Translations under genes and position numbers: made by a program
NCBI RefSeq assembly: GCF_001677475.2
Contig: NZ_CP015229.1
Direction: 5' to 3' (one strand)
Length of the DNA stretch: 64,000 nucleotides
DNA from: Escherichia coli
GTDB lineage: Bacteria > Pseudomonadota > Gammaproteobacteria > Enterobacterales > Enterobacteriaceae
The notes under the pieces: generated by a model
The model's database searches: none
What the model was told of the DNA's origin: nothing
What the model saw: only the letters and a program-made list of their open reading frames with translations
Shown here: piece after piece, positions 2,413 to 53,709 of the stretch
How positions within the stretch are numbered: the first letter of the stretch is position 1
Layout: the number at the start of each line of letters is the position of its first letter

Positions 2413-3918
2413 ATGGAAACCAAAGATCTGATTGTGATAGGTGGCGGCATCAATGGTGCTGGTATCGCGGCAGACGCCGCTGGACGCGGTTTATCCGTGC
2501 TGATGCTGGAGGCGCAGGATCTCGCTTGTGCGACCTCTTCCGCCAGTTCAAAACTCATTCACGGTGGCCTGCGCTACCTTGAGCACTATGAATTCCGCCT
2601 GGTCAGCGAGGCGCTGGCTGAACGTGAAGTGCTACTGAAAATGGCCCCGCATATCGCCTTCCCGATGCGTTTTCGCCTGCCGCATCGTCCGCATCTGCGC
2701 CCGGCGTGGATGATTCGGATTGGTCTGTTTATGTACGATCATCTGGGTAAACGCACCAGCCTGCCGGGATCAACCGGTTTGCGTTTTGGCGCAAATTCAG
2801 TGTTAAAACCGGAAATTAAGCGCGGATTCGAATATTCCGACTGTTGGGTAGACGACGCCCGTCTGGTACTCGCCAACGCCCAGATGGTGGTGCGTAAAGG
2901 CGGTGAAGTGCTTACCCGGACTCGTGCCACTTCTGCTCGCCGCGAAAACGGCCTGTGGATTGTGGAAGCGGAAGATATCGATACCGGCAAAAAATTCACC
3001 TGGCAGGCGCGCGGCCTGGTTAATGCTACCGGCCCGTGGGTGAAACAGTTCTTCGACGACGGGATGCATCTGCCTTCGCCTTATGGCATTCGCCTGATCA
3101 AAGGCAGCCATATTGTGGTGCCGCGTGTGCATACCCAGAAGCAAGCCTACATTCTGCAAAACGAAGATAAACGTATTGTGTTCGTGATCCCGTGGATGGA
3201 CGAGTTTTCCATCATCGGCACCACCGATGTGGAATACAAAGGCGATCCAAAAGCAGTGAAGATTGAAGAGAGTGAAATCAATTACCTGCTGAAAGTGTAT
3301 AACGCGCACTTTAAAAAACAGTTAAGCCGGGACGATATCGTCTGGACCTACTCCGGCGTGCGCCCGCTGTGTGATGATGAGTCCGATTCGCCGCAGGCTA
3401 TCACTCGTGATTACACCCTTGATATCCATGATGAAAACGGCAAAGCCCCGCTGCTGTCGGTATTCGGCGGTAAGCTGACCACCTACCGCAAACTGGCGGA
3501 ACACGCGCTGGAAAAACTGACGCCATATTATCAGGGCATTGGTCCGGCGTGGACGAAAGAGAGCGTGCTGCCGGGCGGTGCCATTGAAGGCGACCGTGAC
3601 GATTACGCCGCGCGTCTGCGCCGCCGTTACCCATTCCTGACCGAATCGCTGGCACGTCATTACGCACGCACTTACGGCAGCAACAGCGAGCTGTTGCTCG
3701 GCAATGCAGGGGCGATAAGCGACCTCGGGGAGGATTTCGGTCATGAGTTCTACGAAGCGGAGCTGAAATACCTGGTGGATCACGAATGGGTCCGCCGCGC
3801 CGACGATGCCCTGTGGCGTCGCACAAAACAAGGAATGTGGCTGAATGCGGAACAACAATCTCATGTGAGTCAGTGGCTGGTGGAGTATACGCAGCAGAAG
3901 TTGTCGCTGGCGTCGTAA
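2413..3918 (+). CDS. glpD: Aerobic glycerol-3-phosphate dehydrogenase GlpD (FAD-dependent)
   Basis: Track ORF 506 aa; conserved start METKDLIVIGGGINGAG (FAD-binding GxGxxG); 501 aa. Confidence 0.95.
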   Translation: METKDLIVIGGGINGAGIAADAAGRGLSVLMLEAQDLACATSSASSKLIHGGLRYLEHYEFRLVSEALAEREVLLKMAPHIAFPMRFRLPHRPHLRPAWMIRIGLFMYDHLGKRTSLPGSTGLRFGANSVLKPEIKRGFEYSDCWVDDARLVLANAQMVVRKGGEVLTRTRATSARRENGLWIVEAEDIDTGKKFTWQARGLVNATGPWVKQFFDDGMHLPSPYGIRLIKGSHIVVPRVHTQKQAYILQNEDKRIVFVIPWMDEFSIIGTTDVEYKGDPKAVKIEESEINYLLKVYNAHFKKQLSRDDIVWTYSGVRPLCDDESDSPQAITRDYTLDIHDENGKAPLLSVFGGKLTTYRKLAEHALEKLTPYYQGIGPAWTKESVLPGGAIEGDRDDYAARLRRRYPFLTESLARHYARTYGSNSELLLGNAGAISDLGEDFGHEFYEAELKYLVDHEWVRRADDALWRRTKQGMWLNAEQQSHVSQWLVEYTQQKLSLAS

Positions 3919-49736: not shown

Positions 49737-49957
49737 TTTCTTCTCATCACTTAAAAAAACGGCGCTAGTTTACGCCCTGTGAGTCCGTAAGCAAACCAGG
49801 TTAACGATTGCGTGAAAATTAACCATTGCATTGTCAACGTAAAGCAGTATCATGCGGCGGCTCGAAAAAAGGGTAAGAACGTTATTTAATCAAGGTAAAA
49901 TAGCGTGTCGTACGTATTGGGTTCCCTCACCCCAATGGTTAATCAAAAAGGTACAAT

Positions 49958-50623
49958 ATGAACGTTTTCTCGCAAACTCAACGCTATAAGGCGTTGTTCT
50001 GGTTATCGTTATTTCATCTTCTGGTGATCACCTCCAGTAACTATCTGGTTCAGCTTCCGGTCTCCATTTTTGGTTTTCATACCACCTGGGGCGCGTTTAG
50101 CTTTCCGTTTATCTTTCTCGCTACTGACCTGACCGTGCGTATTTTTGGCGCGCCGCTGGCTCGTCGTATCATTTTTGCGGTAATGATCCCCGCATTGCTG
50201 ATCTCCTACGTCATCTCATCGCTGTTTTATATGGGGTCATGGCAGGGATTCGGCGCACTCGCCCACTTCAACCTGTTTGTCGCCCGTATCGCCACCGCCA
50301 GTTTCATGGCCTACGCGCTGGGGCAAATCCTCGACGTGCACGTTTTTAACCGCCTGCGTCAGAGTCGTCGCTGGTGGCTGGCACCGACGGCTTCCACCCT
50401 GTTTGGTAACGTCAGCGACACGCTGGCCTTCTTCTTCATAGCCTTCTGGCGTAGCCCGGATGCCTTTATGGCTGAACACTGGATGGAAATCGCGCTGGTC
50501 GATTACTGTTTCAAAGTGTTAATCAGTATCGTTTTCTTCCTGCCAATGTATGGCGTATTACTCAATATGCTGTTGAAAAGACTGGCAGATAAATCCGAAA
50601 TCAACGCTTTGCAGGCGAGTTAA
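49958..50623 (+). CDS. yhhQ: Queuosine-precursor transporter YhhQ
   Basis: 221-aa polytopic ORF. Confidence 0.85.
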   Translation: MNVFSQTQRYKALFWLSLFHLLVITSSNYLVQLPVSIFGFHTTWGAFSFPFIFLATDLTVRIFGAPLARRIIFAVMIPALLISYVISSLFYMGSWQGFGALAHFNLFVARIATASFMAYALGQILDVHVFNRLRQSRRWWLAPTASTLFGNVSDTLAFFFIAFWRSPDAFMAEHWMEIALVDYCFKVLISIVFFLPMYGVLLNMLLKRLADKSEINALQAS

Positions 50624-50695
50624 AGGTTCGTTATCAGAGTTGTGATAAGATGGATGAATGAGCCGTTATGGCCGTTTATCGAAAGGAAGAAGTCA

Positions 50696-51253
50696 ATGCG
50701 CAATCTGGTTAAATATGTCGGAATTGGCCTGCTGGTTATGGGGCTTGCGGCCTGTGATGATAAAGACACTAACGCTACGGCGCAGGGTTCGGTCGCGGAA
50801 AGTAACGCTACCGGGAATCCCGTCAACCTGCTTGATGGCAAGTTAAGTTTCTCGCTGCCAGCGGATATGACCGACCAGAGCGGTAAGCTGGGAACGCAGG
50901 CCAATAACATGCATGTCTGGTCCGACGCCACCGGGCAGAAAGCAGTCATCGTCATCATGGGCGATGATCCGAAAGAAGATCTGGCGGTGCTGGCGAAGCG
51001 TCTGGAAGATCAGCAACGTAGCCGCGATCCGCAGCTGCAAGTGGTAACCAATAAAGCCATTGAGCTGAAAGGTCACAAAATGCAGCAGTTAGACAGCATT
51101 ATCTCCGCGAAAGGCCAGACGGCGTACTCTTCCGTTATTCTGGGTAACGTGGGTAATCAACTGCTGACCATGCAAATTACGCTGCCCGCTGACGATCAGC
51201 AAAAAGCGCAGACCACCGCAGAAAACATCATTAATACGCTGGTTATTCAGTAA
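50696..51253 (+). CDS. dcrB: Periplasmic lipoprotein DcrB
   Basis: Conserved product starts at internal Met ([20 protein letters not shown], lipobox LAAC); 185 aa. Confidence 0.85.
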
Positions 51254-51256
51254 GTT

Positions 51257-52474
51257 TTAAGATGATGAGGCGGCCTCAGGGACGTGTTCCGGAGGCCGTT
51301 TTTTTAATCGCCACGTCAGTAATAACGCGATTGCGACCAGTCCCGCCGCCGCCAGATAAATCACCGGTACGCCCGCCCAGCTCATCACCAGCCCAGCCAG
51401 TGGTCCGGTCACGCCAAGCGATAAATCCATAAATACGGTGTAGGTTGCCAGCGCCGCCCCCTGATTTTGCTGTGGAACCGCTTTTACCGCCACTACGCCC
51501 AATGCCGGGAACACCAGCGAAAACCCTGCCCCCGCCAGTAAGACGCCGATTTTCGCCATCCACGGCATAGTCGCCACGCCAACCAGTAGCAGGCCGATTA
51601 TCTCAACGCTAAAGCAAATCATCGCCACGTTTAAGCCGCCGATACGGTTAATGCCGTTAGGGAATAACAAACGCGTACCGACAAACGCACAGCTAAACAG
51701 CGTCAGCGCGAAAGCCGCACCGTCCCAACCTTTAGCGTCATAAAACAGCGTGATAAAAGTGGCGATAACGCCAAATCCGGCGGAAGCCAGTGCCAGCGCC
51801 ATACCGTACAGCCAGACGCGCCCAAGCACCGCGCGAAACGGCAGCGGTTTGCCTTTACTGGCTTTTACCGTCGGACGCGGGATCGCCAACAAAATGGCCA
51901 CCAGCGCCACGCCCATAATGATTAACGCTAACGCCTGCAAGCCGCCCCAGTGATAAAACACGACACCTAACGGCGCACCCATCGCCATCGCCCCGTAAGT
52001 GACAATGCCGTTCCACGAAATCACCCGCCCGATATGCAGCGAGCCAACCACGCCAACGCCCCACAGGGTCGATCCCGTTCCGGCAAAACTTTGCCCAATC
52101 CCAAGGATGACGCGTCCCAGGCAAAGTAATAACAGGCTGATGACGGGCAGACTGGCGGTTAATCCTGCCGTCAGATATCCCAGACCGCTCAAAAAGCAGC
52201 CGCATAAACCGAAGACGACAATCTTTTTGGGTCCCAGCAAATCGGCGTAACGTCCGGCATGAGGGCGGCTCAGCAAGGTGGCGAAATATTGCAGGCTGAT
52301 AACCAATCCTGCCCAAAAAGCGCTAAAGCCCATCACATCATGGACATAGCCCGGTAATACAGCGAGCGGCAACCCGATGGTGAGGTAGCTGGCGAAGTTA
52401 AACATGACAATGGAGACAATGCGCAAATTCAGGCGCAATCCGTTTAGCGCGGGTTCGGCTACGGGTTCGGGCAT
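51257..52474 (-). CDS. yhhS: MFS transporter YhhS
   Basis: Track ORF 419 aa; conserved start MPEPVAEPALNGLRL gives 405 aa; 12-TM MFS-like hydropathy. Confidence 0.85.
   Translation of the reverse strand: MPEPVAEPALNGLRLNLRIVSIVMFNFASYLTIGLPLAVLPGYVHDVMGFSAFWAGLVISLQYFATLLSRPHAGRYADLLGPKKIVVFGLCGCFLSGLGYLTAGLTASLPVISLLLLCLGRVILGIGQSFAGTGSTLWGVGVVGSLHIGRVISWNGIVTYGAMAMGAPLGVVFYHWGGLQALALIIMGVALVAILLAIPRPTVKASKGKPLPFRAVLGRVWLYGMALALASAGFGVIATFITLFYDAKGWDGAAFALTLFSCAFVGTRLLFPNGINRIGGLNVAMICFSVEIIGLLLVGVATMPWMAKIGVLLAGAGFSLVFPALGVVAVKAVPQQNQGAALATYTVFMDLSLGVTGPLAGLVMSWAGVPVIYLAAAGLVAIALLLTWRLKKRPPEHVPEAASSS
51271..51305 (+). terminator. Rho-independent terminator of dcrB, lying inside the 3' end of convergent yhhS
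   Basis: Stem cggcctc/gaggccg with 14-nt loop followed by a run of 7 T. Confidence 0.45.
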
Positions 52475-52605
52475 GAGGATCACCACATTTTTACAACAGT
52501 GTTTCATTTTTACCATGTGCTGACGTGAAAATCAGCAGTAAGAATCAGAATATTGCTGGCGTGACTCCCGCTACACTTAATACAAAAAGTCACAAGGAAG
52601 CCCCA

Positions 52606-53655
52606 ATGGAAACCCTTCAACCGGATAAAACAGGAATGCATATTCTGCTCAAGCTGGCCTCGCTGGTAGTGATTCTCGCCGGCATTCACGCAGCGGCAGA
52701 TATAATTGTGCAACTGTTACTGGCGCTCTTTTTCGCCATTGTCCTCAATCCGCTGGTCACCTGGTTTATTCGTCGTGGAGTACAACGCCCCGTTGCCATT
52801 ACCATTGTGGTGGTGGTGATGCTGATAGCACTTACTGCGCTGGTCGGCGTACTGGCGGCATCGTTTAACGAATTTATCTCTATGCTGCCGAAGTTTAATA
52901 AGGAGCTGACGCGCAAACTTTTTAAATTGCAGGAGATGTTGCCTTTTCTTAATTTGCATATGTCGCCGGAGCGAATGCTGCAGCGGATGGACTCGGAAAA
53001 AGTGGTTACCTTCACCACGGCGCTAATGACCGGGCTTTCCGGGGCAATGGCGAGCGTGCTTTTGCTGGTGATGACCGTAGTTTTTATGCTGTTTGAAGTG
53101 CGCCACGTCCCTTACAAAATGCGTTTTGCGCTGAATAACCCACAGATTCACATCGCAGGATTACACCGCGCACTTAAAGGCGTTTCGCATTATCTGGCGT
53201 TAAAGACGCTACTCAGTTTATGGACAGGTGTCATCGTCTGGCTGGGGCTGGAGCTGATGGGGGTGCAGTTTGCGCTGATGTGGGCAGTACTGGCGTTTTT
53301 GCTCAACTACGTGCCCAATATCGGCGCGGTAATTTCCGCCGTACCGCCAATGGTTCAGGTGCTGCTTTTTAATGGCGTTTACGAATGTATTCTGGTCGGC
53401 GCATTGTTTTTAGTGGTCCATATGGTCATCGGCAATATTTTAGAACCACGGATGATGGGCCATCGCCTGGGGATGTCCACCATGGTGGTATTTCTTTCAT
53501 TGTTAATTTGGGGATGGCTGCTCGGCCCGGTAGGGATGCTACTTTCGGTGCCATTAACCAGCGTGTGTAAAATCTGGATGGAAACCACCAAAGGCGGTAG
53601 CAAACTGGCGATTTTACTGGGACCAGGCAGACCGAAAAGTCGGTTACCGGGATGA
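52606..53655 (+). CDS. yhhT: AI-2E (PerM/YhhT) family transporter
   Basis: Conserved product starts at internal Met (METLQPDKTGMHILL...); 349 aa; polytopic. Confidence 0.85.
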   Translation: METLQPDKTGMHILLKLASLVVILAGIHAAADIIVQLLLALFFAIVLNPLVTWFIRRGVQRPVAITIVVVVMLIALTALVGVLAASFNEFISMLPKFNKELTRKLFKLQEMLPFLNLHMSPERMLQRMDSEKVVTFTTALMTGLSGAMASVLLLVMTVVFMLFEVRHVPYKMRFALNNPQIHIAGLHRALKGVSHYLALKTLLSLWTGVIVWLGLELMGVQFALMWAVLAFLLNYVPNIGAVISAVPPMVQVLLFNGVYECILVGALFLVVHMVIGNILEPRMMGHRLGMSTMVVFLSLLIWGWLLGPVGMLLSVPLTSVCKIWMETTKGGSKLAILLGPGRPKSRLPG

Positions 53656-53709
53656 GGCGACAAGTGATACGATACGCACTTTCATTTTCCATTATACGTT
53701 GGCCCTGAT

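Follow-up and report, generated by a model that had tools for sequence, protein, structure and literature searches.

Intrinsic terminators consist of a GC-rich stem of ~5–14 bp with a short loop, followed by a U-rich tract of ~7–9 nt. The element that follows dcrB in Escherichia coli resembles the canonical intrinsic terminators of this species in its GC-rich stem-loop, in its tract of 7 U, in RNA 3′ ends that coincide with the end of this tract, in its partial termination and in the presence of Rho action downstream. Unlike them, it lies wholly inside the CDS of a convergent gene, yhhS, and not in an intergenic spacer, so that every base of the stem and of the U-tract is also a base of a codon. 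Terminators in such a position are allowed for by TransTermHP, which searches 500 nt past the stop codon when the spacer is short and can thereby find terminators inside a convergent neighbour (PMC1852404).

Three other described systems are close to this locus. The bidirectional terminators of the SEnd-seq class (Ju et al. 2019), as far as they are presented in bioRxiv 10.1101/2022.10.23.513370, also have one hairpin at a convergent junction; the dcrB element differs from them by having neither a 5′ A-tract nor a − strand U-tract, by selection that seems to act on one strand, and by a partner transcript that is likely ended by Rho. The convergent excludons (PMC12288877) typically present overlapping transcripts and a short intergenic distance, as found here, but the dcrB/yhhS overlap is asymmetric, with ~50 nt of dcrB transcript into yhhS and ~450 nt of yhhS transcript into dcrB; excludon status is assigned in that work from RNA-seq coverage only, and dcrB-yhhS is thus listed by coverage. 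Sequences with a dual use as RNA structure and reading frame share with this locus the frozen synonymous sites and the amino-acid changes that track compensatory pairs; unlike them, the two functions are here divided between the two strands and between two genes.

The window, which is the whole stretch of 64,000 nt of E. coli DNA that was analysed, is collinear with MG1655 (NC_000913.3) over positions ~50050–53700, with point differences only. The addition of 3,559,259 to a window coordinate gives the MG1655 coordinate, and this offset was checked. The 3′ end of dcrB and its junction with yhhS are identical to K-12, and RefSeq presents an identical dcrB/yhhS layout for K-12 and two other E. 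coli strains. The locus comprises the following features:

50643–50651 (region 50643..50657), + strand: putative dcrB promoter, extended −10 motif TGaTAAGAT, read from the sequence
50657, + strand: dcrB transcription start site (TSS), A50657, equal to MG1655 3609916 and six bases past the −10 motif (SMRT-Cappable-seq, PMC6131387 Suppl. Data 1)
50696..51253, + strand: dcrB CDS, 185 aa, with its TAA stop at 51251–51253 (RefSeq b3472, 3609955..3610512)
51254..51256, no strand: GTT spacer of 3 nt from the dcrB stop to the yhhS stop, from the sequence, with equal spacing in RefSeq
51257..52474, − strand: yhhS CDS, MFS transporter, 405 aa (RefSeq b3473, 3610516..3611733)
51270..51299, + strand: proposed terminator hairpin of the dcrB transcript, 30 nt, GC-rich, with an 8-bp outer stem, an A/G mismatch, a 4-bp inner stem and a CGUG loop
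51270–51277, + strand: 5′ arm of the hairpin, GCGGCCTC
51278 and 51291, + strand: mismatch of the hairpin, A51278/G51291
51279–82 and 51287–90, + strand: inner stem of the hairpin, GGGA/TTCC
51283–86, + strand: loop of the hairpin, CGTG
51292–51299, + strand: 3′ arm of the hairpin, GAGGCCGT
51299..51305, + strand: T7, the proposed terminator U-tract, whose last T is the mapped dcrB RNA 3′ end

The earlier note had described the two genes as convergent with stops 3 nt apart, which is what the coordinates give (51251–53 and 51257–59, the yhhS TAA being read as tta on the + strand). With this spacing, the same 49 bp encode, on the − strand, the C-terminal tail of YhhS, which is cytoplasmic. The note had also placed a hairpin and T7 within the last ~16 codons of yhhS, and this is confirmed: the segment spans the yhhS stop and the last 15.3 codons, and the last 16 codons of the gene (51257–51305) overlap the dcrB 3′ UTR and terminator.

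Read in order over 51270–51299, the hairpin is GCGGCCTC-A-GGGA-CGTG-TTCC-G-GAGGCCGT. It begins 16 nt past the dcrB stop, a position kept in ~60 loci. Its stem of 8 + 4 bp, with nine G-C pairs and a 4-nt loop, is that of an intrinsic terminator, and T7 stands directly 3′ of the stem as the corresponding U-tract; from this anatomy we infer that the element is Rho-independent. The segment 51254–51310 folds in RNAfold at −24.3 kcal/mol (z = −4.2), with one of 200 shuffles equally good. Hairpins of −14 kcal/mol or stronger with a run of at least six T directly after them occur at five sites on both strands of the 64-kb window, against a mean of 1.3 in first-order Markov simulations, and the dcrB site is the strongest. 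A simple promoter and terminator scan of the window did not report the dcrB hairpin, because of the internal mismatch; its terminator-like matches were at background level (12 found, 7.0 ± 2.5 expected). One of the weak candidates, at 51220..51207 on the − strand inside dcrB, was considered as a terminator of yhhS and dropped, being at background level.

The hairpin element is single-copy in the window even with up to 3 mismatches allowed, and is found at a median of 1 place per genome among 5070 E. coli genomes; an origin from REP or another dispersed repeat is ruled out by this single copy. A search in Rfam at E ≤ 1 gave no match to the element.

Published transcript ends agree with the anatomy. 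In the SMRT-Cappable-seq data of Yan et al. 2018, a forward transcript of dcrB (b3472) only, with TSS 3609916 and termination site (TTS) 3610564, is reported in both media (PMC6131387). This TTS corresponds to window position 51305, the final T of T7, so the 3′-end mapping that the earlier note had asked for already exists on the dcrB side, with a published end at the last T of the hairpin element in two media. In M9 medium, 25 reads begin at the TSS; 12 stop at the TTS, and 5 continue for 50 nt or more past it. The corresponding numbers in rich medium are 35, 23 and 2 (PMC6131387). Termination at the dcrB hairpin is then ~70–90% by these counts, in which the reads ending at the TTS are few (12 and 23). 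The site is labelled ‘novelTTS’, that is, it was absent from RegulonDB at that time (PMC6131387). For yhhS (b3473), the same data hold no defined transcript end, its expression being too weak for a TTS (PMC6131387). No 3′ end in the range 36105xx–36106xx, where the hairpin lies, appears in the curated Term-seq list of Adams et al. 2021 (PMC7815308). This is weak counter-evidence, because the list holds dominant ends only: 882–1175 per condition, about a quarter of them gene-terminal (PMC7815308).

The same work maps Rho-dependent termination with the Rho inhibitor bicyclomycin (BCM), and two of its regions are located at this locus:

51535, + strand: peak of a Rho termination region, equal to MG1655 3610794, 230 nt beyond the hairpin and in antisense orientation to yhhS (PMC7815308 Suppl. 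file 2)
50807, − strand: peak of a Rho termination region, equal to MG1655 3610066, ~450 nt beyond the stop of yhhS and in antisense orientation to dcrB (PMC7815308 Suppl. file 2)

At 3610794 (+), coverage without BCM is 171 upstream and 16 downstream, and with BCM 183 and 124 (Rho score 7.2; p = 1.1e-15); at 3610066 (−), the values are 73 and 23 without BCM and 119 and 121 with it (Rho score 3.2; p = 9.4e-6) (PMC7815308). The − strand region is likely the end of the yhhS transcripts. No − strand 3′ end is reported at the hairpin itself, the − strand Rho region lying 450 nt further on (PMC7815308). On the + strand, the coverage past 3610794 is 9% of that before it without BCM and 68% with BCM, a larger rise than would be expected from leakage of 10–30% through the hairpin. 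The excess may reflect a hairpin that is weaker in vivo, or antisense starts inside yhhS that are suppressed by Rho; the comparison uses 800-nt windows, too coarse to separate a leaky hairpin from yhhS-internal starts.

A scan for DcrB with one genome per species gave 80 loci across Enterobacteriaceae. In almost all of them a GGCCUCC...GGRGGCC hairpin with T7 is present 3′ of dcrB, and its conservation, with covariation, spans ~20 genera. In a gapless alignment of 38 distinct orthologous 30-nt hairpins, 93.5% of the cells at paired positions are base-paired, against 35–55.5% when the partners are slid; changes on both sides occur in 7 of the 13 pairs, and the observed values were reached by none of 500 shuffles. 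The G·U cells of the alignment, which can pair only in RNA of the dcrB sense, number 49, whereas there are 3 A·C cells, the kind that RNA of the yhhS sense would present as G·U. The + strand fold is the stronger one in 31 of the 38 sequences (mean −21.6 vs −18.6 kcal/mol), and columns T32–T37 are invariant. To judge from these alignments, it is the structure, and not the sequence, that is under selection, on the dcrB-sense strand.

The hairpin and its T-run are also retained in genomes that lack yhhS and have yhhT as the next gene after dcrB, as in the E. cloacae complex, Cedecea, Buttiauxella warmboldiae and others. The breakpoints of yhhS loss differ between lineages, being at the T-run in E. 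cloacae while B. warmboldiae retains the last ~50 nt of yhhS; the losses were therefore independent, and the terminator was spared each time. A weakened hairpin is found in S. enterica subsp. arizonae (−9.8 kcal/mol). Within E. coli, the K-12-like 49-mer occurs in 3891 of 5426 complete genomes, at least 1119 have a copy that is 80–90% identical, and at least three alleles of the hairpin circulate.

On the opposite strand, YhhS ends with ...W-R-L390-K-K-R-P-P-E-H-V-P-E-A-A-S-S-S405-stop, and each part of the terminator can be read in it. T7 is A7 on the − strand, and provides the third base of Leu390 and the codons of Lys391-Lys392 (AAA AAA); the 3′ arm encodes Arg393-Pro394-Pro395 (CGG CCT CCG); the loop and inner stem encode Glu-His-Val-Pro; and the 5′ arm encodes Glu400-Ala401-Ala402. 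Synonymous choice is restricted at these codons. All 56 loci have AAA at both Lys391 and Lys392 (112/112 codons), with ~21% AAG across seven other conserved Lys columns of yhhS; and in 46 of 47 loci Arg393 is encoded by CGG, a codon otherwise uncommon, with a mixture of synonymous codons at most of the other Arg columns.

Among homologues the tail follows the pattern LKK-[R/W]P[P/L/Q/S]-(3–5 variable residues)-[P]EA-x-SSS. Where the loop is translated, the residues vary widely (EHV, VEA, VEI, SAL, VVS, VAE, TQT, VEQ and others), the first three of these being E. coli alleles. In S. enterica, a compensatory change of C-G to U-A distinguishes two alleles and alters two residues at once (RPPSALPEA vs RPSAALPKA), and, folded in an 81-nt segment, both alleles retain a hairpin of about −26 to −30 kcal/mol. 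Tail variants with WRLKTASGTRP also occur among the homologues. The search for YhhS homologues had only close relatives from Enterobacteriaceae among the matches listed.

Conservation of the YhhS C-terminus at the length found here, which the earlier note had set as a check, was borne out in part: in 56 of 64 orthologous loci the yhhS ORF enters the hairpin or passes through it, but the length of the tail varies between genera. Kluyvera YhhS stops in the hairpin loop (KKRPLA*), and that of Buttiauxella is three residues longer, the tails thus ranging from KKRPLA* to ...SSSQQQ*. In Kosakonia, Atlantibacter and L055, YhhS ends upstream, the genes are 60–260 nt apart, and a separate intergenic terminator, an A-tract/hairpin/T-tract element, occupies the spacer. 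In Kosakonia, T7 is broken to T5GT4 (KQK), and YhhS stops after 5–8 more residues (RLKQKPVLVG* or similar). From these comparisons, the basic cluster past the last transmembrane helix seems to be wanted by the YhhS protein itself, and the perfect T7 and all YhhS residues after it seem to be imposed by the terminator.

Then, we propose that the hairpin at 51270–51299 and T7 are, with high probability, the Rho-independent terminator of a monocistronic dcrB transcript. The reading of this element as an intrinsic terminator of dcrB, already made in the earlier note, is sustained by the mapped 3′ end, the covariation, the strand asymmetry and the frozen synonymous sites. RNA polymerase starts at 50657, transcribes dcrB past its stop and makes the hairpin 16 nt further on, and the RNA is released at the end of the U-tract, at 51305. 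The 10–30% of dcrB transcripts that would leak through the hairpin are, from the BCM data, probably ended by Rho within ~100–250 nt, antisense to yhhS. The hairpin would act in one direction, its − strand copy being translated, weaker and devoid of a U-tract. Transcription of yhhS would continue antisense across most of dcrB and, as the BCM data suggest, be ended by Rho ~450 nt on, near the dcrB 5′ end. The tail of YhhS is in this sense a passive translation of the dcrB terminator, with selection mainly on the dcrB-sense RNA structure.

That the hairpin arose by chance and has no function is scarcely credible. Terminator-like matches do occur at background level in coding DNA, but the z-score, the rarity of such sites in the window, the covariation, the strand asymmetry, the mapped 3′ end and the frozen synonymous sites all stand against it. 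It is also very improbable that the hairpin is bidirectional and ends both the dcrB and the yhhS transcripts. The palindrome of the perfect stem folds on the − strand too (−16.8 to −18.6 kcal/mol), convergent E. coli genes often have such terminators between them (bioRxiv 10.1101/2022.10.23.513370), and at the dcrB-yhhS junction of Kosakonia and Atlantibacter a true A-tract/hairpin/T-tract element is present. Here, however, the hairpin is followed on the − strand by CCUCAUCAUCUUAAAAC, and the 8 nt past it on that strand contain on average 2.8 T, at most 4 (61 loci), against 7.0 on the + strand; the + strand 5′ flank is AAGATGATGAG, with no A-tract 5′ of the hairpin; the − strand copy lies within the translated yhhS ORF, 8–10 nt before the stop; G·U pairs weaken the − strand stem; and the Rho-dependent region of that strand is located 450 nt downstream. 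A further explanation inverts the proposed dependence: the tail KKRPP...PEA..SSS would be conserved as a functional motif of YhhS, and its palindromic code would produce the RNA hairpin as a side effect. Basic residues are expected after the last transmembrane helix by the positive-inside rule; they are kept there even in Kosakonia, as KQK or KLR, and LKKRPP and PEA are nearly invariant among YhhS proteins. Against this, the hairpin and T7 are kept in lineages without yhhS, synonymous positions are frozen, paired substitutions swap two amino acids together while base pairs are retained, the tail varies in length (KKRPLA* to ...SSSQQQ*), and where the terminator is located elsewhere the tail shares only the basic cluster, which makes a peptide motif a most improbable source of the conservation.

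The coupling of the two genes, which the earlier note had suggested, would add to the terminator function and not replace it: the overlap would be a regulatory convergent excludon, acting by RNA polymerase collision or by RNase III cleavage of the duplex. The pair belongs to the 165 convergent excludons that recur in half or more of 58 MG1655 transcriptomes (ExcludonFinder, Table 1, PMC12288877), the Rho regions at 3610066 (−) and 3610794 (+) indicate that each transcript extends into the partner gene, and head-on RNA polymerase collisions affect termination at convergent pairs (bioRxiv 10.1101/2022.10.23.513370). An overlap of 49 nt between the dcrB and yhhS transcripts follows from the mapped TTS; but the 3-nt spacer alone yields an overlap, and the listing is almost automatic, since with such a spacer any 3′ UTR makes one. 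Moreover, the structure seems to be selected for the dcrB transcript alone, yhhS is without a defined transcript end in SMRT-Cappable-seq, the terminator is retained where yhhS is absent, and several genera keep the genes 60–100 nt apart with a terminator of their own in the spacer; as the terminator outlives yhhS and the genes are apart in several genera, coupling is not a conserved requirement. Anticorrelated expression of dcrB and yhhS was not found in the datasets examined. To our knowledge, no mutual-exclusion phenotype has been described for this pair, and we consider a regulatory excludon unlikely. A more elaborate version, an asymmetric excludon gated by the terminator, is distinctly improbable: the terminator would shield yhhS from antisense transcription, and yhhS, when induced and without a terminator, would run ~450 nt antisense through dcrB and lower the level of this envelope lipoprotein; the terminator would also impose the YhhS tail, in which the Lys-Lys derives from the U-tract and the slippage-prone A7 could occasionally swap the tail.

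As a terminator of dcrB placed in the coding end of yhhS, the case is ordinary and largely known, with its mapped 3′ end on record since 2018 and the overlap since 2025, and it opens no new question in termination or gene regulation. What is added here is the view of the YhhS tail as a passive translation of the dcrB terminator, which is an illustration and not a new kind of system. For annotation, the end of the dcrB transcript can be fixed at MG1655 3610564, and the YhhS residues past Lys392 can be regarded as dictated by the terminator and not as a functional motif. In strain engineering, deletion, tagging or recoding of the yhhS 3′ end, as in C-terminal fusions and Keio-type deletions, harms the dcrB terminator, and edits in the dcrB 3′ UTR alter YhhS. 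The locus also serves as a teaching example of how an RNA structure needed on one strand freezes the synonymous sites, and drives the amino-acid changes, of a gene on the opposite strand.

On the plus strand, coverage antisense to yhhS at window 51535 (MG1655 3610794), taken relative to the coverage upstream, rose from 9% to 68% when Rho was inhibited with bicyclomycin (Adams et al. 2021, PMC7815308). This rise is greater than leakage through the dcrB terminator alone would predict, and it may reflect Rho-suppressed antisense starts within yhhS. The same study reports, with more than one listing in its supplementary tables, a reproducible Term-seq 3′ end at window 50733 (+), equivalent to MG1655 3609992, which has an intrinsic-terminator score of about 1 and lies outside the Rho regions. 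It is located 37 nt into the dcrB ORF and approximately 77 nt from the dcrB TSS (window 50657), and it could be a site of premature termination or processing in the signal-peptide region of dcrB.

The comparison of the window with MG1655 revealed only one mismatch across 50441-51406. The tusA-yhhQ region, upstream of dcrB (window ~49741-50440), presented many substitutions and far more differences from K-12 than dcrB, and upstream of ~50020 an indel or a strongly divergent stretch makes the fixed-offset comparison fail. This mosaic pattern of divergence between tusA-yhhQ and dcrB suggests recombination.

The T-run of the dcrB terminator is read on the minus strand as an A7 run of yhhS (window 51299-51305). 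YhhS protein clusters P0040 and P0096 present the C-terminus WRLKTASGTRP, which is the tail that results when the frame shifts by 1 nt within this run and agrees with the alternative-frame ORF 51276..51563 (-) of the window; since these tails fit such a frameshift, the T-run is also a frameshift-prone homopolymer of yhhS. Another YhhS variant, P0094 (438 aa, six members), has a C-terminus that matches the antisense translation upstream of dcrB (ORF 50620..50958 (-), at window ~50620-50680 (-)), which suggests strains in which a deletion has removed dcrB and the yhhS frame continues. In Salmonella enterica, the hairpin alleles of loci L085 and L086 (1495-1575, minus strand) differ by a compensatory change of a C-G to a U-A pair, which at once replaces Pro395 by Ser and Glu400 by Lys in YhhS.

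Some orthologous junctions carry another terminator, within a spacer of 60-260 nt.

Junctions with an A-tract, hairpin and T-tract terminator
Kosakonia L046, L056, L057, L059, L064, L067: ~20-50 nt after the dcrB stop
Atlantibacter L073, and L055: ~20-50 nt after the dcrB stop

This element looks bidirectional. At these loci YhhS has RLKQKPVLVG* or a similar end, and T5GT4 stands in place of the unbroken T7.

In other genomes yhhS is absent and yhhT directly follows dcrB.

Loci without yhhS
L020, L030, L032 (E. cloacae complex)
L049, L079 (Cedecea)
L074 (B. warmboldiae)
L076, L077

All of these loci keep the dcrB hairpin and T-run. The yhhS of L045 (Salmonella enterica subsp. arizonae; 3073-3110) may be a pseudogene, because tblastn with yhhS returned only fragmentary matches; its hairpin folds at -9.8 kcal/mol with two mismatches in the stem, and T7 is intact. 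Among the loci without yhhS, the breakpoint depends on the lineage: in E. cloacae it coincides with the T-run, and in B. warmboldiae it lies about 50 nt inside the 3′ end of yhhS. Since the breakpoints differ among lineages, yhhS seems to have been lost more than once, in independent events.
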